Assembly: GCA_963770835.1 (NCBI GenBank)
Contig: CAVYRH010000026.1
Location: 78,811-142,810, forward strand
Length of the DNA stretch: 64,000 nucleotides
Source of the DNA: an uncultured Pseudomonadota bacterium
GTDB taxonomy: Bacteria; Oederibacteriota; Muellerivitia; Muellerivitales; Muellerivitaceae
Reading direction: 5' to 3'
The notes below the pieces were generated by a model. That model was not told the DNA's origin, searched no databases, and saw nothing but the letters and a program-made list of their open reading frames with translations. The position numbers and the translations under genes are program-made. Positions within the stretch are counted from its first letter, which is position 1. Each line of letters begins with the position of its first letter. This document shows positions 1 to 53,034 of this stretch, piece after piece.

Positions 1-295
1 TTCACCGTAAAAGTCGCCGAAGTTAAAAATAGGCTGGGTGTGCCAGCCTTGGAGATAGGCGGCTAAAGCATCCTGGTGGTCCAGGGTCGTCCAATCCAGG
101 GCTGTGGCGACGCTTCCCACGGCAAAAGGGGCAATATTGTCACTGGTGAAAAGGTTCGGCAGGTCATCGACGAGCTTGACGGGAAAATGGGCTAGGGAAG
201 TGTCCGAATCCGGCGAGGTCCAGTCCCCACCCCAAGCCGGCGATAAAAAGAGAAAAATCAGTAAGGCCGGAAGAAGGGTTCTGCCGTTCAGCAAA
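1..295 (-). CDS. Partial CDS running off the window start: N-terminal part of a secreted/exported hypothetical protein (signal-peptide-like LLPALLIFLFLSPAWG)
   Basis: Hand translation of the reverse strand gives an open frame from about 295 (TTG candidate start) to position 1 with no stop: ...LNGRTLLPALLIFLFLSPAWGGDWTSPDSDTSLAHFPVKLVDDLPNLFTSDNIAPFAVGSVATALDWTTLDHQDALAAYLQGWHTQPIFNFGDFYGE. Not in the ORF track because it has no stop in the window. Confidence 0.3.
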
Positions 296-788
296 CTTGG
301 TCGTTTTTGGAGGAAATTCCGGGTTTGAATTTCTTATATGCCCAAACGCCCACCCCGATTCCAATAACGGTCGCGAAGGCGATCAGTTTGCCCTCGCCGA
401 TTTGGGTCAGGGAGGTTCCAGGGCAGGTCCCGGCCAAGGCCCATCCGGCCCCGAAAAGGAAGGCTCCCGCCAGGCGGTTGGGATCCCACTTCAGGGGTTC
501 CAAATCCAGCTTTTGGCCGGAATAGTCCTTGTTTCCACCGCGCCGTAGGAGGAAAAGGCCCAGGCTGACCACGGCCACCGCTACCAGGATCACGCCGTAC
601 AACTGGAACTCACGGCAGCGGAACATGGCGACGATGCTGTCGTAATCCGTGGCGCGGGACTTGGAGAGGAAATAACCGAAAAGAATCCCGAAGGCGATGT
701 AGGGAAAGGCGTTTTCGGTGGCCGAAACCTTGGAGGACTTCCGGCGGGTTAATTTAGGTGCCGCTTTACGGGATTTACGAAGGGCCAT
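288..788 (-). CDS. YeeE/YedE family membrane protein (sulfur-containing compound transporter-like), half-size unit
   Basis: Multi-TM 166 aa with the family's GTCPGT-type motif (AGTCPGTSL); immediately downstream of a second YeeE/YedE-like half gene, stop/start overlapping at 788. Confidence 0.6.
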   Translation of the reverse strand: MALRKSRKAAPKLTRRKSSKVSATENAFPYIAFGILFGYFLSKSRATDYDSIVAMFRCREFQLYGVILVAVAVVSLGLFLLRRGGNKDYSGQKLDLEPLKWDPNRLAGAFLFGAGWALAGTCPGTSLTQIGEGKLIAFATVIGIGVGVWAYKKFKPGISSKNDQVC

Positions 789-1318
789 TAGAACACCGCC
801 TTATAAAGGATATTGGTCACCAGGATTCCCGCCGCCAGGAAGGCGAGGGTGGCCAGGATGGACATCTTACTGCCCAGGGAAACCCCCATGATGGTGTTGC
901 CGCTGGTGCAGCCACCCGCCCACCGGGCACCGAAACCGATCAGGAACCCACTCACCAACAGCCAAAGGATCTTGTAAATCAAGCTTCCAAAAGTGATTCC
1001 GTCCAATTGGCCGTAAAGCCAGGTCCAGCTCCAATGGCCGATATTGGCCAGGAGGCCGCCCAAGGGGAGGCCCAGGATGAACCAAAGCTTCCAGTTGGAA
1101 GGGGAAAGCTGGAAAGCGGAGTCCTTCGTGACGATGGAACAGGCGTCCTCAAATCCGCCGGTCACCCCTAGGCGTTTTCCCGTGAACCAAGCCAGCCCCA
1201 CCGCCGTCAACCCCAGCCCCAAGCCGGCGGCCCACCAGGACCAGGTTTGGGAGAAAAGCAGATGGGACAAATTTTCCAGGAAAACCTGGAAATGAGAGGG
1301 TTGTGCCGCTGGGTTCAA
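788..1318 (-). CDS. YeeE/YedE family membrane protein, partner half-size unit
   Basis: 176 aa hydrophobic protein with a GGCTSG motif (WAGGCTSGNT) typical of YeeE/YedE repeat units; start overlaps the stop of the downstream paralog. Confidence 0.6.
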   Translation of the reverse strand: MNPAAQPSHFQVFLENLSHLLFSQTWSWWAAGLGLGLTAVGLAWFTGKRLGVTGGFEDACSIVTKDSAFQLSPSNWKLWFILGLPLGGLLANIGHWSWTWLYGQLDGITFGSLIYKILWLLVSGFLIGFGARWAGGCTSGNTIMGVSLGSKMSILATLAFLAAGILVTNILYKAVF

Positions 1319-39565: not shown

Positions 39566-41703
39566 GGCTTCCGCTCCATAGGGGCGGCGGGTGAAAGCTG
39601 GGCCAAAAGCAATCGGGATTCGGTGAAATCCAAGGGAGCCCGGACCGCTTCCTGGAAGAATTGATGGGCCTTGGGAGGATCGTTTAAGGCCAGTTGGAGA
39701 ACCCCCAACCGGTAAAACAAGTGGGCGGCGGGATAACCCGAATGGACCGCCTGTTCCAGGGCTTCCACGGCATCGTTCATTTTACCGGCCTTGACCGAAA
39801 GGTCCGCCATTTTTTCCCAATAGCAGGTCTCCAGGAAGGAATCCTTTTGAAAAAGGCCATGCACCGCGAGAAGGAAAGGACGGACTTTCTCCAGGGGGTC
39901 GCCGCTGTTGTAGTTCAAATTTTGAAGGTAGGCGTCGATGAAGCCGTCCAGGGTCTGGTCCGCCTCCCGCCATTCCAAAAAGACGGGACGGTTGGCCGGG
40001 GAAAGGGGAACCAGCCATAGCATCAAACCGCCGTCCGGGGGATGGAGGTCCTTCGAGAGCCAGTAACTTTTGCCGGGGCCGAAACGCTTGACCAGGAAGG
40101 GCTGCTCGTTCACGTTGGCCAAAACGGCGGCCCACCGGGCCGATCCGGGGTCCAACTTCGGATTAGAAACGGCGTTGAATCCGTAGTCGGCGATATCCAA
40201 TGTCTGGTCACAGCTGCCCGCCGGGAAATCGGAAAAAACCAAACCGGGGCCCTCGGCCCGGGCTTGGGCCTTGAGGACGCCAAATGCGCGGTAATAATTA
40301 ATGGATTTTGTGAATTTCAACCAATAAGCCGGATCATCCCAGACCCGATGGAGGGGTCCGGCCAAGTGGAAAAAATCCAGTCCAAAGGATAATGCCAAGA
40401 GCGCGCCTAAAAGGAGCAAGGGATGCCGGTAGGGGGGCAGGGAAACCACTAAACGGGCCAGGCCCAGGGCCGCCAGCGGCACGGTGATGACGGCGGCGGC
40501 GGCGATGCGGAAAGTTTCGGAGTCATGGCTTAACATCCCCGGAAGCAACAAGAAGAGGAACGCCGCCACCAGCCAACGTCCCAGTGGAGTTCCGGACCGG
40601 ATTGCCTCCAGGAAACCGCAAAAAACGCAGGATCCTAAAACCGGATTTAAGAACCCTCCCCAAATTGGCTGGAAAGTGTAGTACGAAAGCGGCAGTCCCC
40701 AAAAAACGGCGCTCCAATACGAAAGGGAGACTTCCATCCGGTGCCACGAGAGGGGGGACCCTTGATGGGTCCAAAGCATTTGAAGGTAGGGCGGCAATCC
40801 AGCGCGTCCTAGGTGGACCAGAAACGGCAGGATGACCGCGGCTAAAGACAGGCCGAAAGCCAGCGGCACCCAAGGTGACCGCCGGAAAGCCCACGCGACG
40901 GTCAGCCCTACCAGCAGCGCCACCGCCATCCACTGGAAATAAACGGCGTAAAAAGTCAGGCCGACAGCCAATCCCAAAAGAAGGGCCGCAGCCATCCTTG
41001 GGCGGGGCCGGGCCGCGCGGAACAAGAGGGCCAGCGGGATCAAGACAGCTGTTTCCACAAGGGGGATGAGGCATACGAAGCTGGCGAAGCGCCCGATGTA
41101 CCAAAACCAAAAGCCCAAAGCCCCTAGAGCCGCGCAAAGAAAGGAAAAGGACCTGGAGAAGTTCCATTGGCGGCAGGCAAGGTAAGCCAGGGGCGGGAAG
41201 CCCAGGGAAAAAATCAGGGGCGAGGACCACAAGCTCCCAATGGAAGGCCCCTCCAGCCTAAAGCAAAGGCTGAGCCACCATTGGTAAAAAGGAGGATGCT
41301 GGGCGCCGCTGTACAAAAGCCGGTCAATTCCCATCCGCATGATCCGCAGGGCGTAGAAGCCCACGATGCCCTCGTCCGAATGGGGCCACACGAAAAGGCC
41401 CATCAGTTTATAACCGCGAACGAAAATGGCCAGAGCTGCGACAAGGACCCAAACCCAAGGAGGCACCGCCGGCAGGAATTCCTGGAAGTAGAGCGGTTTT
41501 CCGGAGGGGCCTGGAACATAGGTTTTCCATGCCACGAAAAAAAGCAATAGGAGGCCGGGCAGGCCGGTCCAAAGTTTGGTTTCCAAGGGCAGGGGGGCGT
41601 AAGAAAGAAGGAGATTGGCGGCAAAGGTAATGAAGAAGTAAGCCCAGGGATGGTAGGAAAAGAAAAAGGCCTTAAAGGGGGGAAGTTTCAACATCGGAAC
41701 CAT
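39562..41703 (-). CDS. GT-C fold glycosyltransferase, PMT/TMTC-like with C-terminal TPR (paralog 6 of 6)
   Basis: Start taken at internal Met (MVPMLKLPPF...) one nucleotide downstream of the hpnE stop. The ORF-track start at 41841 would overlap hpnE by 137 nt. VWPHSDEGIVGFYALRI motif; TPR-like C-terminus. Confidence 0.55.
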   Translation of the reverse strand: MVPMLKLPPFKAFFFSYHPWAYFFITFAANLLLSYAPLPLETKLWTGLPGLLLLFFVAWKTYVPGPSGKPLYFQEFLPAVPPWVWVLVAALAIFVRGYKLMGLFVWPHSDEGIVGFYALRIMRMGIDRLLYSGAQHPPFYQWWLSLCFRLEGPSIGSLWSSPLIFSLGFPPLAYLACRQWNFSRSFSFLCAALGALGFWFWYIGRFASFVCLIPLVETAVLIPLALLFRAARPRPRMAAALLLGLAVGLTFYAVYFQWMAVALLVGLTVAWAFRRSPWVPLAFGLSLAAVILPFLVHLGRAGLPPYLQMLWTHQGSPLSWHRMEVSLSYWSAVFWGLPLSYYTFQPIWGGFLNPVLGSCVFCGFLEAIRSGTPLGRWLVAAFLFLLLPGMLSHDSETFRIAAAAVITVPLAALGLARLVVSLPPYRHPLLLLGALLALSFGLDFFHLAGPLHRVWDDPAYWLKFTKSINYYRAFGVLKAQARAEGPGLVFSDFPAGSCDQTLDIADYGFNAVSNPKLDPGSARWAAVLANVNEQPFLVKRFGPGKSYWLSKDLHPPDGGLMLWLVPLSPANRPVFLEWREADQTLDGFIDAYLQNLNYNSGDPLEKVRPFLLAVHGLFQKDSFLETCYWEKMADLSVKAGKMNDAVEALEQAVHSGYPAAHLFYRLGVLQLALNDPPKAHQFFQEAVRAPLDFTESRLLLAQLSPAAPMERKP

Positions 41704-41704
41704 T

Positions 41705-43072
41705 TTAGGGTCTTCGCGAAAGATATTCCCGAACTTTTTCCGCGGCGCGGTGGCCCGAAAGGCAGGCGCCTTCCAGGGTGGCGGGAAGGCCCGTGTTGGT
41801 CCAGTCCCCGGCCAGGAAGACATTGGGGTAGGGCGTTTCACAAGGCGGGCGGAGCCTGTCCGTTTCCTTGTTCCAAACGAAAGTGGCGGCCATTTCCCGC
41901 GTGGCCTTGGAATAAAGCACGGAAGCCCCAGCGGCCGCGGGACACTTCGCCCGCAATTCCACCAAGGCCAAGTCCACCAGTTCAGGGTCCTTCAAGCGGC
42001 CCAGGTCTTCCGCTGCGCTGGCCGTAAAGCTCAAGTATTGGCCTTGCCCCTTCCAAGACCAATTGGCGTTGCGGTTGAAAACCCACTCGAACCTGGCGCC
42101 CGAAAGCCCGACGAGATGGCCTTCCATGACCGGCTTGGAAAGGATGACGTGGACGGAAACAATGGGGGATTTTCCCATTTTGGAGAAATGGGAGGTTGTT
42201 TCCCAAGTCCCGGCGGGCCAAAGGGCGGAGAGGGAAGTGGGCGGCACGGCGAAAACGAGGGCATCGCCGGGATAAACGGCACCAGAACGGGTTTTAATTT
42301 CAAATACTCCCTCTTTAACAGTGAATTCCTGGACCCCCTCATGAAAAAGAACCCGCCCCCCTTTTGCTTCCAGGCACTTCCGGGCTTTTTCCGAAACCAG
42401 GTCGCCCAGGGGGAACCGAGCGATCCCTAAGGCGCTGTCCCGGCGGTTCCCGAAGAAGACCCGGTGAAGCACCTCGCCCAGGCCCAGGAGGGGCGCGACG
42501 GCGGGGGGAACGTTCATGACACTATCGCAAAGGGGCACCCAAAAGCGCTCGCGGGAGTGCGGGCCCTGGCCGGTGGTATCGAGGAACTGCGCCACGGTTT
42601 CCGCGCCCGACGGAATCCGAAAAGGTTTTTTCGAGAAAGCCGAAAGGGCCTTCGACATGGAAATTTTTTCCTTCCATGGAAAAGCGTTGGAAGTGAGGAG
42701 ACCCCAAACCAGATGGAAAGGAGCGGGCAGGGGGGCGCATTTCAGCGAGACTTTTTTCCCGCCAGAAGTGAGCCAGGAAAGGGCCAGGGGATCAATCCAA
42801 TGGAAGGCGCCGTTCATCCCGATTCGCTCCAGCATCCGGAGGGTTTCGGCGTAGCAACCCATGAAAAGATGGGGGCCGTTGTCCATGGGCGCGGGGAAGG
42901 TTTCGGAGGCCGGGATGGAATAGGCCCGGCCGCCCAGGGAGCCGCGGGACTCCAGGAGGTCCACGGAAATACCCTCTTCGGCCAGGGCCGTGGCGGCGGC
43001 GATCCCGGCATATCCCCCTCCCACGACGATCACTTTTCCCATCAACGAACTATCCCTTTCCAAAGCCAGCAA
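41705..43072 (-). CDS. hpnE: Hydroxysqualene dehydroxylase (amine-oxidase/phytoene-desaturase family)
   Basis: GKVIVVGGGYAGIAAATALAEEG FAD fold, C-terminal FLAGDWTNTGLPATLEGACLSG; third gene of a canonical hpnC-D-E triad. Confidence 0.75.
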   Translation of the reverse strand: MLALERDSSLMGKVIVVGGGYAGIAAATALAEEGISVDLLESRGSLGGRAYSIPASETFPAPMDNGPHLFMGCYAETLRMLERIGMNGAFHWIDPLALSWLTSGGKKVSLKCAPLPAPFHLVWGLLTSNAFPWKEKISMSKALSAFSKKPFRIPSGAETVAQFLDTTGQGPHSRERFWVPLCDSVMNVPPAVAPLLGLGEVLHRVFFGNRRDSALGIARFPLGDLVSEKARKCLEAKGGRVLFHEGVQEFTVKEGVFEIKTRSGAVYPGDALVFAVPPTSLSALWPAGTWETTSHFSKMGKSPIVSVHVILSKPVMEGHLVGLSGARFEWVFNRNANWSWKGQGQYLSFTASAAEDLGRLKDPELVDLALVELRAKCPAAAGASVLYSKATREMAATFVWNKETDRLRPPCETPYPNVFLAGDWTNTGLPATLEGACLSGHRAAEKVREYLSRRP

Positions 43073-43881
43073 CGGCCAACCACTCCCAAAACCGAAAGCA
43101 GCTTGTCGGCCTTGGAGAGGACGGTGCGCCCCTTCAGAATGCGGTAGGGATTGGCCCTCAATTTTTGGTAAAGCTTCACATAAACGGCAGCGATGGCCTC
43201 GGCGGTCACCAGTTGGGAGCGTTGGAAAAGGCTCAAGGACCCCCGCGCTTTTTCAAGGTAAGACCAGGCGCGGTCCAGTTGGAATTCGACGAAGGGTTTC
43301 CAGTGGGAATCGGTCTCCCCGAGTTGGGCTGGATTTAGGTGGAACCGCTTGAAGTCCTCCTGCGGGAAATATTGGCGATTGAGGGCCATGTCCTCCCGGT
43401 AATCCCGGGTGATATTGACCAACTGGAGGAAAACGCCGAGGTTTTCGGCGTAATCGCGGTGGGCCTGGTCCTTGAAGCCGAAGATTTCCATGCAGGCCAA
43501 GCCGGGGCCCCCCGCCACCTTCAGGGCGTATTGGTGGAGCCCAAGGAATTTTTTGAACCGGACGGGCCTCAAATCCTGTTCCACGCCCTGGATAATCCGT
43601 TCCAAGGGTTCGCGGGAAAGGCCGAAGGCGGGGATGAGGCCTTTCAACCTAAGAAAGAGAGGATGGGTTGCCCGGTCTGCAAAAGCGCTATTCAGGTTCC
43701 GTTTGAAGCGGGACAGCTTGCTCTTTTTTTCGGCGGGCGAACCTGGTCCATCGGCGATCTCATCGGCTTCCCAGCAGAAACGGTACAACACTTCCATGGC
43801 CCGTCTTTGGGAACGGGGTAGGAGAAGGAGGGCATAGTAAAAGCTGGTTTTGTTTTCGAGCGAGCCTTTTTGGGGGTTCAC
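43042..43881 (-). CDS. hpnD: Presqualene diphosphate synthase (squalene/phytoene synthase family)
   Basis: SFYYALLLLP, YRFCWEADEIAD (first Asp-rich motif), NITRDYREDMALNRQYFPQED (second motif). Confidence 0.75.
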   Translation of the reverse strand: MNPQKGSLENKTSFYYALLLLPRSQRRAMEVLYRFCWEADEIADGPGSPAEKKSKLSRFKRNLNSAFADRATHPLFLRLKGLIPAFGLSREPLERIIQGVEQDLRPVRFKKFLGLHQYALKVAGGPGLACMEIFGFKDQAHRDYAENLGVFLQLVNITRDYREDMALNRQYFPQEDFKRFHLNPAQLGETDSHWKPFVEFQLDRAWSYLEKARGSLSLFQRSQLVTAEAIAAVYVKLYQKLRANPYRILKGRTVLSKADKLLSVLGVVGRCWLWKGIVR

Positions 43882-43902
43882 AGGACCTCTTGCTAGTTAT
43901 TT

Positions 43903-44772
43903 TTAAGGATGAACCGCGCCAAATAGGGACCGGAGAGCCAGCGAAAGCTTATCGAATGCGTTCCAGGAGGGCCGGGTTTGGAGCACATTGTAGTCCATGT
44001 CCCTGATTTTATTGAGGATTCCCTGGCCGCCCAAGTAGGTCGCCTTCAATTCCAGTTTCAAGCGGCCGGACACCGATTCCAAGAGGGGGTGGCCTTTTTT
44101 AAAGTAACCTTCGGTGTAATCCACGGCGCTTTTCACCAGGACCCGGACCGCCGCGGAAGCCTTCAAGCCCAGCAGATCTTTTTCACCCACACCCGCCTTT
44201 TTCAATTCCAGCCGGGGGTAATAAATCCGGTTCCGTTTCAGATCCATCGCCGTGTCCTGCCAAAAGTTGATGAGCTGGAGGCCGCTGCAGATGAAATCCG
44301 AGTACCGGTGAAGTTTTTCCTCCCGGATGCCGGAGATATAAAGCACCATGCGGCCCACGGGATTGGCGCTATGGCGGCAATAAAAAAGAACCTCCTTCCA
44401 GGAAGCGTAACGCTTGACGGTCAGGTCCATCCGGTAGGCTTTCAACAAATCCAAGGGAAGGGAAAGGGGGATGCGGAAGGTCTTCAACGTGTTCGCGAAG
44501 GCTTGGAGTTCCAGGGGAGCCTTCTTCCTTTTCAGGGCGTCCTTGAGGCTCTTTTCCCAGCGGTTGATTTCCCCCAGGCGCCGGCCCTCGTATTCTTCCT
44601 CATCCGCGAAGTCATCGGCGGTGCGGGCAAAGGCATAGAGGGCCGCCACATGGGGGCGGGATTGCTTGGGCAAGAGCAGGGAGGCCACGGGGAAGTTCTC
44701 ATAGTGGCCAAAAGTCCGCTTCTGGCATAAGGCGTAAGCTTGCTCAAGGCCGGAGGGGATCGATGAGTCCAT
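43903..44772 (-). CDS. hpnC: Hydroxysqualene synthase (squalene/phytoene synthase family)
   Basis: ENFPVASLLLP, YAFARTADDFADE, LINFWQDTAMDLKRNRIYYP motifs; first gene of the triad. Confidence 0.75.
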   Translation of the reverse strand: MDSSIPSGLEQAYALCQKRTFGHYENFPVASLLLPKQSRPHVAALYAFARTADDFADEEEYEGRRLGEINRWEKSLKDALKRKKAPLELQAFANTLKTFRIPLSLPLDLLKAYRMDLTVKRYASWKEVLFYCRHSANPVGRMVLYISGIREEKLHRYSDFICSGLQLINFWQDTAMDLKRNRIYYPRLELKKAGVGEKDLLGLKASAAVRVLVKSAVDYTEGYFKKGHPLLESVSGRLKLELKATYLGGQGILNKIRDMDYNVLQTRPSWNAFDKLSLALRSLFGAVHP

Positions 44773-44824
44773 AGAAAGGTATTATTCAGAAAAGGGCGGA
44801 TGAAAGAACCGAAAAAGTGGGTGT

Positions 44825-45196
44825 TTACAGGACCGTTGCGGTGTAAATGAGGGCCGCGCAGGCGGTTTTTACAAAAGGACAGATTTTGATGGGAAGAATG
44901 GAAGTCCGTGCCCCGGTGAAAAGGGTCCAAAAGGCCATGAGGATCAGCATGGCGGCGCAGAGGCGGAACACCAGGACCGAAGTGGGATTCAAACCTTGCC
45001 GGAGGGCGACGATGGCCACCAATGCCCCGATAAAAGAAAGAGTCAGACCTTCAGCGACCCATTCCATCAGGATGATTTTTTGATTGTCGGAGGAAAGGGG
45101 GCCGAAACCCTTCACCACGGCGCGGGTGGGGACGATATGGGCGATGCCCCAAACCAACAAAACGACAGAAGCTAGATACAAGAGGGTGGCAGGCAT
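44825..45196 (-). CDS. Small hypothetical membrane protein (4 TM)
   Basis: 123 aa, four hydrophobic segments, no recognisable motif. Confidence 0.4.
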   Translation of the reverse strand: MPATLLYLASVVLLVWGIAHIVPTRAVVKGFGPLSSDNQKIILMEWVAEGLTLSFIGALVAIVALRQGLNPTSVLVFRLCAAMLILMAFWTLFTGARTSILPIKICPFVKTACAALIYTATVL

Positions 45197-45289
45197 CCTT
45201 CATCCTTTAAAACAGATTGAAGGTAACCTACCAAAGCTTGGACCGGGTTCTTATGACACCGCTCATGAACTGGCCCCAAAGAGAGGGTT

Positions 45290-45640
45290 TTATTTTTCTC
45301 CAGATGGGAGGCGGAGGTAGTTGTACAACAACGCGGCGCAAACCGCACCGATCACCGGTCCCAGGACGTAAATCCACATTTGTCCCAACTGTCCCTGGAA
45401 CAGGGCCGGGGCCAGGGAGCGGGCCGGGTTCATGGAAGCCCCGGTCACGGGCCCGCCCACGAAAGCCGCCAGCATGACCGTGGCGCCGATGGCGGCCCCG
45501 GCCATGGTGCCTTCCGCCCGGGTATCGGTGGCCACCGCCATGATGACGAACATGAGGAAAAAAGTGAGGATTCCTTCCCAAGCCAGGGCCTGTGGGTGAT
45601 GGACCGAGGGGAAGGTGGTCCCGAAGGCCCCGCCCGGGGG
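45290..45640 (-). pseudogene. Aquaporin/aquaglyceroporin (MIP family) remnant: C-terminal half only
   Basis: ORF 45290..45808 contains helices 4-6 and the second NPA box (ASMNPARSLAPALF...WIYVLGPVIGAVCAALLY), but its first about 60 codons are unrelated. No first NPA half anywhere upstream; only 218 bp separate it from the next gene. Confidence 0.65.
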
Positions 45641-45713
45641 AAGAAGGCCACCTGGCCGATTTGCAGGGCCGCCGCTTTGGGTTCTACGGTTCCTCCCGGA
45701 GAGAATGTTACAA

Positions 45714-45731
45714 TCTAGAGCATACTCTAGA
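45714..45731 (+). promoter_or_regulatory. Perfect 18-bp palindrome tctagagcatactctaga upstream of the AhpD-like/arsS pair (operator-like)
   Basis: Read directly; 7-bp arms, 4-bp centre, about 125 bp upstream of the ATG at 45858. Confidence 0.4.
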
Positions 45732-45857
45732 GTCAAGGGCCTTTGTTTGTTTCCCCGAAAAACAAGGAAACCTTTTGGAGCGGGGGAGCGTAATAGGGTT
45801 GGAAGCACATCCTCCCCCCATTAAGCTTGCAGGATCAACTTTCGGAAAGGAACTGAC

Positions 45858-46190
45858 ATGAATTATTACGAATCCAAGGACCTGGGCAAGTTCGCCGGCA
45901 TCGGCAAGTTCAAGCCCGAGCTGGCGAAGAAGTTTTTCGATTATTACACCGCGGCCACGGGCACGGACGGCGCGCTGACCAAGCGGGAGAAGGCGCTCAT
46001 CGGCCTGGCCCTGGCCCACGCCAAGCAATGCCCCTATTGCATCGACCAGTACACCACCCAATGCCTGGAGAACGGCTCCAACCCGGACGAGATGACCGAG
46101 GCCCTGCACGTGGCCGGGGCCCTGGAAGCGGGCATGACCTTAGTTCACGGCGTGCAGATGCACAACGTCATGGACCGCACAGGAGCCTGA
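45858..46190 (+). CDS. Carboxymuconolactone decarboxylase/AhpD-like protein of the type paired with ArsS (arsenosugar biosynthesis-associated peroxidase-like protein)
   Basis: 110 aa, AhpD-core motif LALAHAKQCPYCIDQYT (CxxC); immediately upstream of and co-oriented with a radical SAM gene with a Cys-rich C-terminus, the conserved pair architecture. Confidence 0.6.
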   Translation: MNYYESKDLGKFAGIGKFKPELAKKFFDYYTAATGTDGALTKREKALIGLALAHAKQCPYCIDQYTTQCLENGSNPDEMTEALHVAGALEAGMTLVHGVQMHNVMDRTGA

Positions 46191-46191
46191 T

Positions 46192-47214
46192 TTGTCCATC
46201 GACGTCCAAACCTTTGTTTCCAAGGCCGATTACGACCCGCGGTACGACTTCCAGGGAACGCTGGAAAAACACCGGCTGGATTTAAAGCCCGTCTCCATTG
46301 AGACCCTGCAGGTGAACGTCACCAAGCTTTGCAACCAGGCCTGCCGGCACTGCCATGTGGACGCCTCCCCCAAGCGCACGGAGCAAATGGACAAAGCCAC
46401 CGTGGACAAGTGCCTGGAAATCCTGGAGCGGTATCCTGCCATCAAGAACCTGGATATCACAGGCGGGGCACCCGAGTTGAACCCACACTTTGATTATTTC
46501 GTCGAGGAGGCCCGCAAGCTGGGAAAGCACGTCATGGTACGGCACAACCTGACGGTTACGCTGGACGGCAATCCCCAGACCGGGGAATCCAAGGAATACC
46601 TGCCGGGATTTTACGCCCGCAATAAAGTGGAGGTCATTTCCTCACTCCCTTATTTCCAGGAGTATTTCACCGACAAGCAAAGGGGAAAGGGAGTTTTTCA
46701 AAAAAGCCTGGAAAGCATGAAACGGTTGAATGAGGTTGGATACGGAATAGAAGGAAGCGGCCTGGCGTTGAACCTAGTTTACAACCCGGTGGGAGCTTTC
46801 CTGCCGGCCCCCCAGGCGGATTTGGAAAAGCAATTCCGGCAGGAATTGAAATCCAAATACGGCCTCGTTTTCAACCGGCTTTATACCATCACCAACATGC
46901 CCATCCACCGGTTCAAAACCCAACTCCAGCAGATCGACGGCTATGAGGCTTACATGGAAAAACTGGTGAACTCCTTCAACCCCCAGGCGGCGCAAGGCGT
47001 CATGTGCCGGTCCCTCCTGAGCGTGGGTTACGACGGGCGGATTTACGACTGTGATTTCAACCAGATGCTGGAGATGTCCCTCGGCGGCCAAGAACCGTGG
47101 ACGGTCTTCAACTTCGACTTCGAAAAACTGATGGATCGGCGCATCCTTTTCGCCTCCCATTGTTTCGGCTGTACGGCCGGGGCGGGCTCCAGTTGCGGCG
47201 GGGCGACCGCTTGA
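46192..47214 (+). CDS. arsS: Radical SAM protein with C-terminal Cys-rich tail, ArsS-like (arsenosugar biosynthesis radical SAM)
   Basis: CNQACRHCHV (CxxxCxxC) radical SAM cluster motif near the N-terminus; C-terminal CFGCTAGAGSSCGG tail characteristic of this subfamily; 340 aa. Confidence 0.65.
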   Translation: MSIDVQTFVSKADYDPRYDFQGTLEKHRLDLKPVSIETLQVNVTKLCNQACRHCHVDASPKRTEQMDKATVDKCLEILERYPAIKNLDITGGAPELNPHFDYFVEEARKLGKHVMVRHNLTVTLDGNPQTGESKEYLPGFYARNKVEVISSLPYFQEYFTDKQRGKGVFQKSLESMKRLNEVGYGIEGSGLALNLVYNPVGAFLPAPQADLEKQFRQELKSKYGLVFNRLYTITNMPIHRFKTQLQQIDGYEAYMEKLVNSFNPQAAQGVMCRSLLSVGYDGRIYDCDFNQMLEMSLGGQEPWTVFNFDFEKLMDRRILFASHCFGCTAGAGSSCGGATA

Positions 47215-47605
47215 TTTCAACAACATCCAGGGTTCTCCGGCGGCGGTTGGTGGAGCTGGGATCGATGATCTTTTTTGACTTTTCCTAGCCCTATCCTGTT
47301 ACCCGAAGTGGTAAACCGCCTTTAATTTTTCGAGCAGTCCATGTCATCGGACCTTTTTATCCTATGACTTTGAACAAAATCGGTCTCGAACCCTCTTCAT
47401 TACGGTGAAACTGCAGTAAAGATAATCATTTTCGATTTTTTATTTCATTCATGTAAAACATGCCGGTTTCCACCCTCCCGGCTGATATTTAATTCCCAAA
47501 GGACCGGTGATAATTCCTTAGGTTAAAGGAACGTCATGAGGTTGCCCCCGGATCTTTGAAGTCGGACTGCTCCCCCATTGAATCAAGTTGCCAAGGAGAA
47601 TTTTT

Positions 47606-48766
47606 ATGAAATTTAGGATTGCCGCTCTTTTTTCGTTTTTGGTTTTGACATCCGTGCTGATCATCGGCTGTCCCGGTAAGAACAGCCCTTCCTCTCCCTC
47701 GGCGTCCGCACCCACGGATACCTTTACCGCAACCAACACGGCTTGCACGGATGGATCGGGCCATACCTGCACTTTCACCGTGACCCCCACGGCCACTGAA
47801 ACCGCCACCTCCTCGCCCACCGGTACCCCGACCAATACTGCCACTGTCACGGATACCAGGACCCCCACAGCTACAACCACCAATACGGGTACCCCCACCC
47901 TTACCGGGACGCCCTCCAGCACCGCCACGATCACCAACACACCGACCAATAGTGGCACACCCACCCAAACCGGAACGCCCACCAACACTATACCCACGAC
48001 ACCCACCTCTACGGCCACCAACAGCCCCACGGGAACGCCAAGCCCGACCTATTCCCCCACGCCGGATTGCACTGGAACTTATTCCATTTCCGGTAACATT
48101 ACTTATACCGGCCCCACTTCCGGTGGAAGTAGTGCTTATGTATATGCAATACAAAACCCGGGCGGTGGCGGTAACAATTCGTGCAACCCCCCGGGCACAG
48201 GTCTTTCTGGAGGAACATCGGGATCCTACAGCCTCACCTACCTACCATCGGGTTCCTACTATGTGATCGCCTTCTATGGGGCGCTGCCAGGCAACAGTGG
48301 GCCTCCCCTGGGCTCCAATGCCGCCATTTACAATGCCGGAAATCCCGCTTGTTCCTTCAGCCCTTCCGAGAAAGTTAACGCTTCAACCAATCCGACAGGG
48401 ATCAACCTGACCTTTTCGAACACCTACCAGCTTTGGGGCGTCAACGCAGCTGTGACTTATACAGGGTCAAATTCAAACGGAGGCCTTCAGGTTGGGCTCT
48501 TCTCAGGCGTGAACACCTCCACGGGCGCTTATACCTTAATCACGGAAAATGGCGGGAATGGGGGCTCAAATTTCACTACCGGCCTTATTGACACGACCAC
48601 CGTCTGCGGCGGCGGGGGGAACGTTGAAGTCCTGGCTTGGTACGGCAACAGCTCCAACGGGCCAAACGCTGGCGACAGCTATGGCTATTACGGCACGACA
48701 TCGGAAGTGAATAATTCTACTTCAACGATTAGTATTATATTCAGCGACTCGACTACTTGGCATTGA
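47606..48766 (+). CDS. Lipoprotein with long Thr/Pro-rich linker and C-terminal beta-rich domain, hypothetical
   Basis: Lipobox LIIGC after [17 protein letters not shown]; about 100 aa of TPT/TGT repeats; followed by a terminator at 48798..48832. Confidence 0.5.
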
Positions 48767-48797
48767 GTCAAACTTAAATTAGGTTAAAAAAGTAAAC

Positions 48798-48832
48798 GAA
48801 GCCTGGGCCATTCGGCCCGGGCTTTTTTTTGT
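48798..48832 (+). terminator. Rho-independent terminator
   Basis: gcctgggcc-attc-ggcccgggc hairpin followed by an 8-T run. Confidence 0.6.
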
Positions 48833-48990
48833 TTTCTCCCATGTATTGCGAAACCATTCCTCCAAAAAGTCGATTTAGGCTGGTTTTCAGCTAGCTTTGG
48901 GATAAATATCTAACAAATAATCAACAAATGCCAAGGTTAAACGGATATAATTCCACCAACATCGATAGGTCAACCCCTTCAGGAGGATGT

Positions 48991-49821
48991 ATGAAAAAGT
49001 TTTTAGCAGTGATTTCGATATTTTGCGCGACGGCGTTGTTCATGGCCGGCACCCGGGTTTTCGCGGACGACTCGACCCCCGCAGCTTCCACCACGCCCAG
49101 TACCACCTCAACGGGGTCCAAGCATCATGGGAAAAAGAAAGCCTCATTAACTCCCACCCCCCAACCAACGGTTCAAGCGATTCCGCAATCCACAGCGACT
49201 TCCACCGCAACACCGAAAACCGCCACTGCGACGCCCACTCCGATGGCCTTTTTCACCTCCACGCTTTTCTCGGGGAACGTAAGGCTTTACGACCGGATGG
49301 GAGTCCCGGGCGATTTGCAAAAAGCCATTGCCGCTGCGGCAAAGACCACGGGTTCCTCCGTGGCGAAACACGACCGGTCCGTTTTCTTGTGGTTAGGCAA
49401 GGTTACTTCCGGCAGCGACAGTGACCGCGCAAACGCCTATATCCGTTTCAGCCTGGATGGAGTCGCGTTCGATGGGCCGAAGAAACCGTCGTTGGTCCTG
49501 ACCGGCACGGTTTACGACCAATCGGGGAACGTCTGCAAGGCGGGGGATTTCGTCGAAGTGGCAGTGGATTTCCGGAGCATCAAAGTGGATTACGAGGGGA
49601 CCAAGCTGGGGGAGGTCAACAAGGGGAACGACATCGCCGACCAGGTTTTCGACATCCTCAATGGACACTCCTCCTACCAATGGGTCTTAATCGCCCAAGA
49701 TCAGGTCCGGGACCCCCAGGAATCCATGGGCATGCCGACCTTTGTGGTCAAAGCCCAGGATGGTTACGCTTTCCTCCAAGCCCTGGATAGCCATTCCCAT
49801 TCCAGCGCCTCCGATCGCTGA
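48991..49821 (+). CDS. Secreted hypothetical protein (Thr/Ser/Pro-rich N-terminal region)
   Basis: Signal peptide MKKFLAVISIFCATALFMAGTRVFA (internal Met of ORF 48928..49821). Confidence 0.45.
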   Translation: MKKFLAVISIFCATALFMAGTRVFADDSTPAASTTPSTTSTGSKHHGKKKASLTPTPQPTVQAIPQSTATSTATPKTATATPTPMAFFTSTLFSGNVRLYDRMGVPGDLQKAIAAAAKTTGSSVAKHDRSVFLWLGKVTSGSDSDRANAYIRFSLDGVAFDGPKKPSLVLTGTVYDQSGNVCKAGDFVEVAVDFRSIKVDYEGTKLGEVNKGNDIADQVFDILNGHSSYQWVLIAQDQVRDPQESMGMPTFVVKAQDGYAFLQALDSHSHSSASDR

Positions 49822-49828
49822 GGCGGGC

Positions 49829-51340
49829 ATGAAAACAAAATTCGGAAAATTCCTCAGCCGGTGGCTGGCCTTAGCACTTTTGGCTTGCCCCGGATGGGCC
49901 TCCGCCCTGGGGCTTCCTTTTGCCTCGCCCCCTTTGGTCATCGAAGCCAAGGGAATGGGTAACGCGGTGGTCGCGGATGGCACTCTCTTTAACGCCACCG
50001 CTTACAACCCCGCCCTCCTTCAAAATTACAGCGATTTCGGCGAAGTGCACCTGGAACTTAATCTGGGCAACGACGTCTTCGGAATGGCTAATTATCTGAC
50101 TAATTCCGATAACACCAATAACCTCCAGAATTCCTTACAGAACGTGAACCAGTCCTTTCAAGATATCAACAACGGCTTAACTGCCTTCGCCAACGGTAAC
50201 TCAAGTGGGGTCACAACCTTTAACCAGGGCGTCACCGGACTTCAAACCGCCGTCAACAACATCCAAACGGCCATATCTCACTTCACCGACAAGACTATCC
50301 AGTTGGGAGCGGGCCTTGATATCGCCTTCAAAATTGACGACAACTGGGGTTTCCAGGCCTACAACACCAGCCAGGCGGCTTTCCAGGTTTCCCGTGGAAG
50401 CCTAGTCCAAGCCCTCCTGGCCCTTCAAACTCTTCCCACACTACAAACCAACTCCAATCAGGCGGTGACGCAAGCGGCGGTCTCCCTTTATGGGAACGCC
50501 CAGTCGATTTTCAACGCCTTCCTGACCCCCACCCAACAGCAACAGTTGAGTACGGCTGTCTCGACTTTAAAGTCTTCAAATGGAGACAACGCGGCCCTAT
50601 TGGCTTTCGCCAATAGCGTTAACAGTGTCCTATCCAGCGTATCCTCCCAACTCTCGCAACAGGCCCTTTTCAACGACATCGCCCCCATTACGGCCTTCGT
50701 TTACTCCGACACGGTATTGATGGCCACCTATTGCACGAGACCCTTGGAGAGCGACGGAAACCTTACGACTGGGATCAACCTCAAGGCCGTCAACCGGCGC
50801 ATCGCCTCCATCAATTCGATCTACCTGGCCGCCCAAAATACGAGCCAGTTCTCGGATATCGGAAACGACCTCAAGAACGACATTCAGCAATCCACTTGGC
50901 GTTGGGGTGTGGACTTGGGGGTCTTGTATAACTTTGACGATCCAAGGATAGCGGTGGGGGCCTGTGCCACCGACCTGCTACATTCCACGGCCACGCTCAA
51001 AACCCAGTCCAACGACCCGCTTTATGGGCTGGTGACGGACTCGGCACCGACGGTGGTGCGGGTGGGGGCTTCCTATAAACCCCTCAAGGAATTGACTGTC
51101 AACGCAGACATCGACGACCTCTTAGGCAACACCTCTTATTACCAGGGCCTGGATGCCTTCTCTCACGTGGATTTCGGGTTCAACTATAACCTCGGGGGGA
51201 TTCTTCAACTGCGGGGAGGTATCACCAACGACAACCTCTGTGGCGGAGTGGGGCTTCCCTTGGGCATCCAGTATGCCTTTGCCGTGGACAACCTCACCCA
51301 AAGCTACAACCATTACTTGCAGTTCGACGTGGCTTTCTAG
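49829..51340 (+). CDS. Putative outer-membrane beta-barrel protein, hypothetical
   Basis: Signal peptide MKTKFGKFLSRWLALALLACPGWASA; Asn/Gln-rich; amphipathic C-terminus ending ...HYLQFDVAF (terminal Phe, OMP signature). Terminator at 51376..51402. Confidence 0.45.
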   Translation: MKTKFGKFLSRWLALALLACPGWASALGLPFASPPLVIEAKGMGNAVVADGTLFNATAYNPALLQNYSDFGEVHLELNLGNDVFGMANYLTNSDNTNNLQNSLQNVNQSFQDINNGLTAFANGNSSGVTTFNQGVTGLQTAVNNIQTAISHFTDKTIQLGAGLDIAFKIDDNWGFQAYNTSQAAFQVSRGSLVQALLALQTLPTLQTNSNQAVTQAAVSLYGNAQSIFNAFLTPTQQQQLSTAVSTLKSSNGDNAALLAFANSVNSVLSSVSSQLSQQALFNDIAPITAFVYSDTVLMATYCTRPLESDGNLTTGINLKAVNRRIASINSIYLAAQNTSQFSDIGNDLKNDIQQSTWRWGVDLGVLYNFDDPRIAVGACATDLLHSTATLKTQSNDPLYGLVTDSAPTVVRVGASYKPLKELTVNADIDDLLGNTSYYQGLDAFSHVDFGFNYNLGGILQLRGGITNDNLCGGVGLPLGIQYAFAVDNLTQSYNHYLQFDVAF

Positions 51341-51375
51341 ACCGTCCTAGTTCTGGAAAATTTCGGATTTCATCA

Positions 51376-51402
51376 AAGCCCGGCTAAAAGCCGGGTTTTT
51401 TG
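51376..51402 (+). terminator. Rho-independent terminator
   Basis: aaagcccggc-taaaa-gccgggtttttt. Confidence 0.6.
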
Positions 51403-51545
51403 TTTCTTGAAAGAGGTTTTGTTTCCGAATAAACTACGTCCCCCGCAAAAGACCTTGGACATTTACCCGTTGGATCTTTGCCCCAAGGGTGGAATGCCAA
51501 GTCTGTTTTTAGATCAGGCCCCTGGCCCGATTGTTTATTGATTTT

Positions 51546-51621
51546 GGACATTTAGCTCAGCTGGTTAGAGCGTCGCGTTCACATCGCGAAGGTCACTGGT
51601 TCAAATCCAGTAATGTCCACC
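51546..51621 (+). tRNA. tRNA-Val (anticodon CAC)
   Basis: Hand-folded cloverleaf: acceptor ggacatt/aatgtcc, D-arm gctc-agctggttag-agc, anticodon stem tcgcg/cgcga with loop ttCACat, T-arm actgg-ttcaaat-ccagt, encoded CCA. Confidence 0.85.
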
Positions 51622-51630
51622 AACCGCAAA

Positions 51631-51664
51631 AGCCCGTCCCCTTTTGGGTGACGGGCTTTTTTAT
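51631..51664 (+). terminator. Rho-independent terminator after the tRNA
   Basis: gcccgtcccc-ttttg-ggtgacgggc followed by ttttttat. Confidence 0.55.
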
Positions 51665-51731
51665 GCAAAGCCAATGAAAATTCCATGATTCATCTCATTG
51701 TCCAAGGTTAACCCTTTGTTACAATATCCGC

Positions 51732-52421
51732 ATGTGCTCTCGCTTCGTCCTCAAAAGCCCGCCGAAAGCCATCGCCAACATGTTCAAGTTGGAAAAAGCC
51801 GTCGATTGGAAGCCCCGATACAACGTGGCGCCGTCCCAGAAAATCCCCACTATCATCCGCCCCCTCGGGAATAAGACCCGCGAAATGAAGCTGTTGCAGT
51901 GGGGGTTCGTGGCTTCCTGGACCCAGGGGGGAAGGCTTTTAGTGAACGTCCAAAGCGAGAACATCGGCGATAAGCCGATCCTTCAGGAGTCCTTCGAGAA
52001 GTGGCGGTGCCTCATCCCCGTGGACGGCTTTTACGAGTGGCGGCACCAGGCCAAGGAAACCCATCCCTATTACATCCAAATGAAGGACAAAAAAACTTTC
52101 GCCCTGGCGGGGCTTTGGGCCCCGCAAAAGCTGGAGAACCAGACGCTGGAAGTCTGCGCCATCCTGACCACGACCCCCAATGAGGTGGTACGCGTGGTGC
52201 ACGACCGGATGCCGGTGATCGTGGACCCAAAGTATTATGACCTATGGCTGAACTCGGACGACGTCCGGGATTTCAAGGAGATCGAAAAGCTCTTCCGCCC
52301 CTATCCGGGGGAAGAAATGGAAGCCTACCAGGTTGGCGCCTGGGTGAACAACGTCATCCACGACGACGGGAAGTGCATCGAGCCTTCCAACGAACCAGAG
52401 ACGCTGGCCTTCGAGTTCTAA
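51732..52421 (+). CDS. SOS response-associated peptidase (SRAP; YedK/HMCES family, abasic-site processing)
   Basis: N-terminal MCSRF (catalytic Cys2), NVAPSQ, FYEW, ILTT and DRMPVI motifs of the SRAP family; 229 aa. Confidence 0.8.
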   Translation: MCSRFVLKSPPKAIANMFKLEKAVDWKPRYNVAPSQKIPTIIRPLGNKTREMKLLQWGFVASWTQGGRLLVNVQSENIGDKPILQESFEKWRCLIPVDGFYEWRHQAKETHPYYIQMKDKKTFALAGLWAPQKLENQTLEVCAILTTTPNEVVRVVHDRMPVIVDPKYYDLWLNSDDVRDFKEIEKLFRPYPGEEMEAYQVGAWVNNVIHDDGKCIEPSNEPETLAFEF

Positions 52422-52554
52422 CCTAAAACCTCTATTGAACCACCAAGGCACCAAGGGCACCAAGAACAACGAATGACAAAGAAGTGGACCCCCAAAGCAA
52501 AATTCTCTTTTGCTTTCCTTGGTGTCTATGTGTCTTCGCGGTTAAGCATTTTTG

Positions 52555-53034
52555 TTAAAAGTTCCTAAGTTCTTTTCCGCCGCGGAAAACCGCCGAGCTG
52601 TCCGGTGTTTCCCAAAGCGCCACTTCCACCTGCCGCACCTTTTCCTTTTTTAAAAAGGGCTCCAAGCGTTTCCAGATCACCTGGGCCATGTTCTCGGCAG
52701 TGGGCTGGAAGAAGGGGTCGCCCTTGAACGGTTCCACTTCCTTGTTGATGAAGCGGTGGTCGAAGCGGGCGTAAACTTCCCTCTTTAAAATCTCCTTTAA
52801 CACCCGGAAGTCCATGACGAAGCCCGTGACGGGGTCGACGGGGCCTTGGACGGTGACTTTCAACCGGTAGGAATGGCCATGGGGGTAAAAAACGGCCTTG
52901 GGATCATCCTTCCGATACCCCGCGCATTTGCGGAACACCTCCAGGTTCTTGGCCCGGTCCCACTTGGGGTTGTGCAGGTAATGCGCCGCCTCAAAGGTGA
53001 TCTCTTTTGAGATTTCGGCGATGGTCTTTTTCAT
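52555..53034 (-). CDS. queD: 6-carboxy-5,6,7,8-tetrahydropterin synthase (QueD/PTPS family)
   Basis: Starts at internal Met MKKTIAEISKEITFEAAH; contains YPHGHSYRLKVTVQG and FINKEVEPF motifs (CxxHGH/PTPS fold). Upstream part of ORF 52555..53442 overlaps nadE and is non-coding. Confidence 0.75.
   Translation of the reverse strand: MKKTIAEISKEITFEAAHYLHNPKWDRAKNLEVFRKCAGYRKDDPKAVFYPHGHSYRLKVTVQGPVDPVTGFVMDFRVLKEILKREVYARFDHRFINKEVEPFKGDPFFQPTAENMAQVIWKRLEPFLKKEKVRQVEVALWETPDSSAVFRGGKELRNF

Follow-up and report, generated by a model that had tools for sequence, protein, structure and literature searches.

The mer operator, which belongs to the operator-promoter paradigm of MerR regulators (PmerT, ZntR/PzntA, CueR/PcopA), carries a 7-4-7 dyad that overlaps the -35 element of the promoter. 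MerR-family regulators activate promoters with suboptimal spacers of 19-20 bp (PMC8113463). Channel genes also belong to arsenic operons such as the aquaglyceroporin-containing arsR-aqpS-arsC-arsH of Sinorhizobium meliloti, and a link between AqpN/NIP-like channels and arsenic detoxification in bacteria has been drawn (Pommerrenig et al. 2020, New Phytol 225:1383, as listed in PMC9510833). The arsenosugar pathway, defined in Synechocystis, pairs the radical S-adenosylmethionine (SAM) enzyme ArsS with a partner of the TIGR04169 family, and other ArsS members adenosylate DMAs(III) to 5'-deoxy-5'-dimethylarsinoyladenosine (DDMAA) (PMC13598754). The locus analysed here, which lies in a 64,000-nucleotide stretch of an uncultured bacterium (the window, whose numbering is used throughout), can be compared with each of these systems. 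It carries an intact gene pair encoding an AhpD-like protein and ArsS, set beside the scar of a 1,076-bp deletion in a merR-arsC-aqp operon. A conspicuous dyad between the two would be the orphan operator of the lost MerR-family regulator. We assign this reading a probability of roughly 0.85.

Relatives of the locus were located through the contigs of homologues of the truncated MIP-family channel gene and of near-identical AhpD-like proteins. L095 and L096 (GCA_030041545.1 and GCA_030051685.1) proved collinear with window positions 41585-52711 at ~80% nucleotide identity. They carry hpnE, hpnD, hpnC, aqp (218 amino acids, aa), arsC (140 aa) and merR (127 aa) on one strand, and on the divergent strand the AhpD-like gene, arsS, genes for three unannotated secreted-looking proteins, tRNA-Val and the SRAP gene. 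The sole structural break at the site was defined by blastn, which aligned window 45311-45647 with L095 5378-5714 and window 45646-47217 with L095 6791-8359; an identical breakpoint was seen against L084, L092 and L094. What was lost comprises merR from codon 15 on, the whole of arsC and the first 100 channel codons, and the two remnants lie in different reading frames. Because half genes cannot be ancestral, the window arrangement arose by deletion, and this was a single event of 1,076 bp with defined ends (Table 1). No second MerR, ArsC, ArsI or MIP N-terminal half (L095 residues 1-100) was detected in the window by tblastn. The merR remnant has moreover lost its start codon through two substitutions, while the codon is ATG in all six aligned relatives. 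We found nothing that contradicts the deletion itself, and the locus as a whole shows a known gene pair with gene decay of an ordinary kind next to it.

The other relatives show two further arrangements. An intact operon stands behind the same operator, with no adjoining ArsS pair, in L084, L091, L092, L093 and L094, and in L097 and L098 hpnC lies directly beside the AhpD-like/ArsS pair with no trace of operon or dyad. One locus is thus found intact, half-deleted and absent in related soil bacteria, which supports the proposal of the preliminary description, made from the window sequence alone, that an arsenic-handling locus had been remodelled here: relatives carry merR-arsC-aqp at the same position, some with an added arsI and a second arsC. 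A canonical ars operon (ArsR with ArsB or Acr3) was not present among the genes called at this site in the relatives, which have merR-arsC-aqp instead. In L084 and L094 the operon also includes an ArsI/CadI-family gene (NF041414, 137 bits, cut-off 116), possibly a C-As lyase with a vicinal Cys pair, and the second arsC is found in L084. The contigs of L084 and L094 belong to a noisy assembly of long reads in which frameshifts are frequent; the ArsC pieces of L084 match the thioredoxin-type arsenate reductase at 82-88 bits, under the cut-off because they are fragments of that frameshifted assembly.

The surviving part of the channel gene is a pseudogene that cannot yield a channel. A functional MIP has six transmembrane helices and two NPA half-helices; of these the remnant keeps only the final helices and the second NPA box, covering profile positions 120-224 of 224 (123-222 of 222 in Pfam MIP), with neither a ribosome-binding site nor an in-frame start codon of its own. 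That only a C-terminal half survives had been recognised beforehand, and alignment of L095 MIP residues 101-218 by tblastn (80.5% identity) now maps the truncation to codon 101. The remnant had been described as directly downstream of the ArsS pair, which the strands contradict, as it lies upstream of the pair and is divergent from it. Public assemblies call this open reading frame (ORF) as an 87-aa protein, an annotation better replaced by that of a pseudogene remnant. Relaxed selection on the remnant was considered and rejected: the ratio of nonsynonymous to synonymous substitution rates (dN/dS) was 0.22 against the intact copy of L095 and 0.20 against that of L092, equal to the 0.21 between those two intact copies, a comparison informative no further than that the loss is recent. 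There are no internal stop codons, and the absence of detectable decay suggests a recent deletion. A 987-bp contig from another sample (P0121, JGI sample 3300047160) encodes a MIP fragment of 107 aa whose identity to the window remnant is 90% or higher, with a different, non-MIP N-terminus and 73 bp from a divergent gene; the same channel gene may have been truncated independently in a second strain.

We then considered the sequence between the remnants and the pair. The motif TCTAGAGCATACTCTAGA occurs once in the window, against an expectation of 0, and it remains the single site even when up to three mismatches are allowed, so the window offers no sign of the palindrome-defined regulon that had been envisaged. 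It matches its own reverse complement at 16 of 18 positions, the two central ones differing, and is therefore a 7-4-7 dyad rather than the perfect 18-bp palindrome first reported; it does lie upstream of the pair, as stated, although it ends 126 nt and not 125 bp before the AhpD-like start codon. On the minus strand the sequence runs CCC-TTGACT-CTAGAGTATGCTCTAGATTG-TAACAT, then GGGAGG-N4 and the merR start, and the dyad opens with the final base of the -35 element. The block CTTGAC[T/C]CTAGA[G/C]TAT[G/A]CTCTAGA is conserved in seven lineages, with unalignable sequence just upstream of it, and merR follows the promoter block immediately in six of six aligned relatives. From the promoter layout, this conservation and the position of merR it follows that the dyad is the operator of the deleted operon, and annotation should assign the palindrome to that operon and not to the ArsS pair. 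The orphan promoter points away from the pair and into the merR and MIP remnants.

This arrangement resembles the mer paradigm in the 20 nt between hexamers, in a 7-4-7 dyad that begins with the last -35 base and in the adjacent regulator gene of the relatives, and a MerR-family protein would be expected to bind it. It differs in that in the relatives the regulator gene itself heads the operon that its product would activate and is not transcribed divergently from it, in that the effector is presumably arsenite, and in that the window has lost the regulator gene, of which 14 codons without a start codon are left.

The preliminary description had instead proposed that the palindrome is a repressor operator of the AhpD-like/ArsS pair and that arsenite uptake was reduced by the specific inactivation of an aquaglyceroporin. 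The dyad does stand 126 nt upstream of the pair in a shared intergenic region; in L095 and L096 it lies between merR and the pair, where divergent co-regulation is geometrically conceivable; and NIP-type channels pass arsenite both ways (PMC9510833). Against this, the dyad sits between opposite-strand -35 and -10 elements with 20 nt between them, beyond which come a ribosome-binding site and the beginning of merR, a layout found in seven lineages, five of which have dyad and operon without an adjoining ArsS pair, while L097 and L098 have the pair and no dyad. The one deletion also took the regulator and the arsenate reductase together with 100 channel codons, which is not the selective loss of an uptake route, and neither a MIP nor a MerR gene was found near ArsS at any of 80 other loci (see below). 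We consider this explanation quite improbable.

It is also very improbable that the orphan operator is still in use, bound by a MerR paralogue encoded elsewhere that modulates either the pair or read-through into the gene for a 123-aa membrane protein and hpnC. Such use would suit the intact -35, dyad and -10 of the window, whereas the merR start has two substitutions, and genes do lie on the same strand beyond the remnant (44825-45196 and 43903-44772). The deletion nevertheless looks recent, with no stops and no excess dN/dS, so that an intact promoter needs no selection; there is no second merR homologue in 64 kb, and the merR remnant is about as similar to L095 as the locus-wide ~80%. An error of assembly or binning that truncated the MIP and left its N-terminal half on another contig is hardly credible: the window does come from a metagenome assembly, but the missing half was not found by tblastn on an adjacent segment of the window, the junction is shared by six runs or assemblies (ERZ25039491, ERR11523662, ERR11523672, ERR10755941, ERR10755938 and ERR12916272), all with contigs that encode the exact ArsS protein and the 87-aa MIP fragment, of which three contain window 45200-47300 exactly and the other three are 99.9-100% identical across the junction, both of its flanks are collinear with L095, and the sequences flanking it, where merR codon 14 meets MIP codon 101, are unique on either side.

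Beside this scar of a deleted merR-arsC-aqp operon, the AhpD-like/ArsS pair is complete. The radical SAM protein matched TIGR04167 ('arsenosugar biosynthesis radical SAM (seleno)protein ArsS' in NCBIfam) with 427.6 bits against a curated cut-off of 300, over profile positions 3-302 of 303, and Pfam Radical_SAM (PF04055) and DUF3641 (PF12345) with 48.5 and 182 bits. The next-best radical SAM family reached 41 bits. Its CX3CX2C motif reads CNQACRHC, and the Cys-rich C-terminal tail, CFGCTAGAGSSCGG, fits the family pattern CxxC...(C/U)GG and carries cysteine by translation, unlike some members of the family, which have selenocysteine. The CPYC protein scored 154.6 bits against TIGR04169 ('arsenosugar biosynthesis-associated peroxidase-like protein', cut-off 120) and 54.6 bits against Pfam CMD (PF02627). 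Both original identifications therefore stand, with no non-ArsS subfamily scoring better. As in the arsenosugar pathway, the hidden Markov model cut-offs are passed and the partner gene lies directly upstream of arsS on the same strand; the arsS start codon, TTG, is 1 nt past the AhpD-like stop codon, an arrangement in which arsS would be translationally coupled to its partner. The enzyme would move the 5'-deoxyadenosyl group of SAM onto dimethylarsenite to give dimethylarsinoyl-adenosine, the first committed step towards arsenosugars, and a function in thiol redox chemistry or in arsenic handling is probable for the CxxC partner. Between the window and L095, dN/dS was 0.09 for ArsS and 0.04 for the AhpD-like protein; against L097 the values were 0.16 and 0.04. 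The pair is kept by purifying selection, and the locus thus offers a small, clean case in which an arsenate-detoxification module was lost while the adjoining organoarsenical pair remained under purifying selection.

Just upstream of the pair there is most likely a promoter that serves it alone. A scan for the sigma-70 consensus, which is blind to 20-nt spacers, gave nothing convincing upstream of the pair. TTGGAA and TAAGCT are a weak candidate, with blocks partly conserved in L095 and in L097, which has no dyad.

Unlike the Synechocystis-defined pathway, the window contains no homologue of ArsM, of the TIGR04282 and TIGR04283 glycosyltransferases or of purine nucleoside phosphorylase by tblastn over its 64 kb. 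The pair had been noted to occur without arsM or arsR. The first part holds for the window, and Pfam annotation of its larger genes, which did not extend to small ORFs such as arsR, returned no ars gene; the implication that a missing neighbour is unusual does not hold. One genome per species was scanned, which gave at least 587 relatives; 80 loci were analysed by clustering of the flanking ORFs, and the identities of the clustered neighbours were confirmed. The AhpD-like partner was near ArsS in 58 of the 80 loci, TIGR04282 in 26, TIGR04283 in 16, ArsM in 15 and purine nucleoside phosphorylase in five; by tblastn, the AhpD-like gene lay directly upstream of ArsS on the same strand in 49. Since 12 loci with full 6-kb flanks carried the pair and none of the other accessory genes, a stand-alone pair is common and the lack of an adjoining arsM ordinary. 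Near ArsS at these 80 loci there were no MIP genes, no MerR genes and one ArsC-like gene. Linkage of the pair to MIP, merR and arsC is restricted to the window's lineage.

The type of the lost channel was examined with the full-length MIP of L095, which is 80% identical to the window remnant. In this comparison of bit scores (not a tree) it matched rice NIP2;1/Lsi1 with 184 bits, AQP2 with 118, AqpZ with 105, AqpM with 101 and GlpF with 57. By these scores the channel is NIP/AqpN-like, closer to a plant NIP than to AqpZ, AqpM or GlpF, and several homologues of the MIP fragment bear the JGI name 'aquaporin NIP'. Alignment to rice NIP2;1 gave a pore constriction of Phe-Ala-Ala-Arg, which in our reading would be wide enough for As(OH)3. 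Because the channel is encoded with arsC in one operon, and by analogy with AqpS of Sinorhizobium meliloti, it would more plausibly be an exit for arsenite made by ArsC than an uptake route. The relatives' operon is like arsR-aqpS-arsC-arsH and like the ars clusters with AqpN/NIP channels in that the channel is co-transcribed with arsC and is nearest a plant NIP. It is unlike the aquaglyceroporin ars operons in its regulator, which belongs to the MerR family and not to ArsR, and in the window the operon is dead, reduced to its promoter, 14 regulator codons and 118 channel codons.

A MerR-family regulator heads the ars-type operons of L084, L091, L092, L093, L094 and L095. All copies read share C-G-[DE]-K-G-L-G-P-C-C, that is Cys-x8-Cys-Cys, ahead of the dimerisation helix. 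Three cysteines are the usual ligand set for As(III), and it is from these three conserved residues that we infer arsenite sensing. The L084 regulator best matched the MerR, ZntR, CadR and CueR models at ~79 bits, with a cut-off of 151, and fell below every curated NCBIfam MerR model. AntR was considered as a MerR-type metalloid sensor and rejected, since it has been described as a different kind of repressor, one that responds to Sb(III). The regulator and its sharply conserved operator, found in the relatives in place of ArsR, are the sole novel lead of this analysis; the protein is not encoded in the window, and if confirmed it would be a new type of sensor for arsenic biosensors. The more extensive proposal, that it represents an uncharacterised arsenite-sensing branch of MerR activating arsC-aqpN through TCTAGAG-N4-CTCTAGA, with the pair of the L095/window lineage perhaps in its regulon and the window operator kept by a copy elsewhere, is unlikely.

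These elements can be combined into a tentative mechanism. In the relatives, the MerR-family regulator would bind the 7-4-7 dyad in the 20-nt-spacer promoter, which would drive merR, a thioredoxin-type arsenate reductase and the NIP/AqpN-like channel, and the channel would let arsenite from arsenate reduction leave the cell; in this scheme MerR binding, arsenite sensing and the direction of flux are the conjectural steps. In the window lineage, one deletion at a 2-nt microhomology removed these functions together, and the merR start later changed from ATG to GTA; the dyad is left without a locally encoded regulator.

Several points weigh against this reading or parts of it. The MerR subfamily falls under the cut-off of every curated model, its link to arsenite is drawn from the cysteines, and no characterised MerR-type arsenic sensor was found in the literature searched. 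The dyad could still serve a MerR paralogue encoded elsewhere in the genome. The signal of purifying selection comes from comparisons between lineages and is no proof that the pair is expressed in the window organism; arsM, which would supply the substrate of ArsS, was sought within 64 kb of the genome only; and the candidate promoter of the pair is weak, with 7 of 12 consensus matches, under the threshold of the sigma-70 scan.

Table 1 Coordinates of the features at the locus, in its surroundings and on contigs of relatives (window numbering unless a relative is named).
Feature	Position	Strand	Details
MerR-type promoter	45705-45736	-	-35 TTGACT (45736-45731), 20-nt spacer, -10 TAACAT (45710-45705); read from sequence
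7-4-7 dyad TCTAGAG-TATG-CTCTAGA	45714-45731		in promoter spacer; two 7-nt arms, 4-nt centre
Ribosome-binding site GGGAGG	45697-45692	-	followed by N4 and the merR start
5' remnant of merR, 14 codons	45646-45687	-	tblastn, L095 MerR residues 1-14 = 45687->45646; start ATG -> GTA at 45687-45685
Deletion junction	45646-45648		1,076 bp missing (L095 5715-6790); 2-nt GG microhomology
3' remnant of NIP/AqpN-like MIP gene, codons 101-218 and stop	45290-45646	-	Pfam MIP, tblastn; coding 45646->45293, stop codon 45290-45292; within ORF 45290-45808
Candidate promoter of the pair, TTGGAA - 17 nt - TAAGCT	45799-45827	+	partial conservation with L095, L097
AhpD/CMD-fold partner, 110 aa, CPYC motif	45858-46190	+	TIGR04169, Pfam CMD
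arsS, radical SAM enzyme, 340 aa	46192-47214	+	TIGR04167, Radical_SAM, DUF3641
merR of L095	6449-6832	-	
merR of L092	1276-1662	+	
ArsI/CadI-family gene of L084	9053-9463	+	NF041414
ArsI/CadI-family gene of L094	6726-7040	+	
Hopanoid/squalene cluster	41705-44772	-	hpnC (SQS_PSY), hpnD (SQS_PSY), hpnE-like amine oxidase
Predicted membrane protein, 123 aa	44825-45196	-	no Pfam or NCBIfam match
Three genes (392, 297, 532 aa)	47588-51340	+	no Pfam match; first very Thr/Pro-rich
tRNA-Val (CAC)	51546-51622	+	just upstream of SRAP gene
Two adjoining Sulf_transp (YeeE/YedE-like) ORFs	288-1318	-	profile positions 10-105 and 165-308 of 310

Directly downstream of the MIP remnant and on its strand is a hopanoid/squalene cluster, its gene names read from Pfam domains, which is syntenic in all relatives examined. 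The gene for the 123-aa predicted membrane protein, between the remnant and hpnC, is a lineage-specific insertion, as it is absent here in L095, L092, L084 and L097. On the other side, the three-gene block between arsS and tRNA-Val is a variable region, since it is common to L095 and mostly replaced by other genes in L084 and L094: block 45739-51400 showed no protein-level homology to its L084 equivalent, and L094 matched the 532-aa protein, weakly, and nothing else. In L091, tRNA-Val lies ~320 bp from the MerR operator, and the 5.7-kb block with the ArsS pair is therefore absent there. The tRNA was the only RNA element that Rfam returned in 44000-52000.

Pfam annotation of the called genes and larger ORFs of the window identified PMT_2 glycosyltransferases, TPR proteins, a CDF cation transporter and an autotransporter, together with an AddAB-like nuclease/helicase, IspH, SAICAR synthetase, NAD synthase, PTPS, SRAP, LplA and a dihydrolipoamide-dehydrogenase-like protein. 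Near the window's start, two adjoining ORFs match the two halves of Sulf_transp, which may reflect either a gene that has split or a version encoded by two genes.

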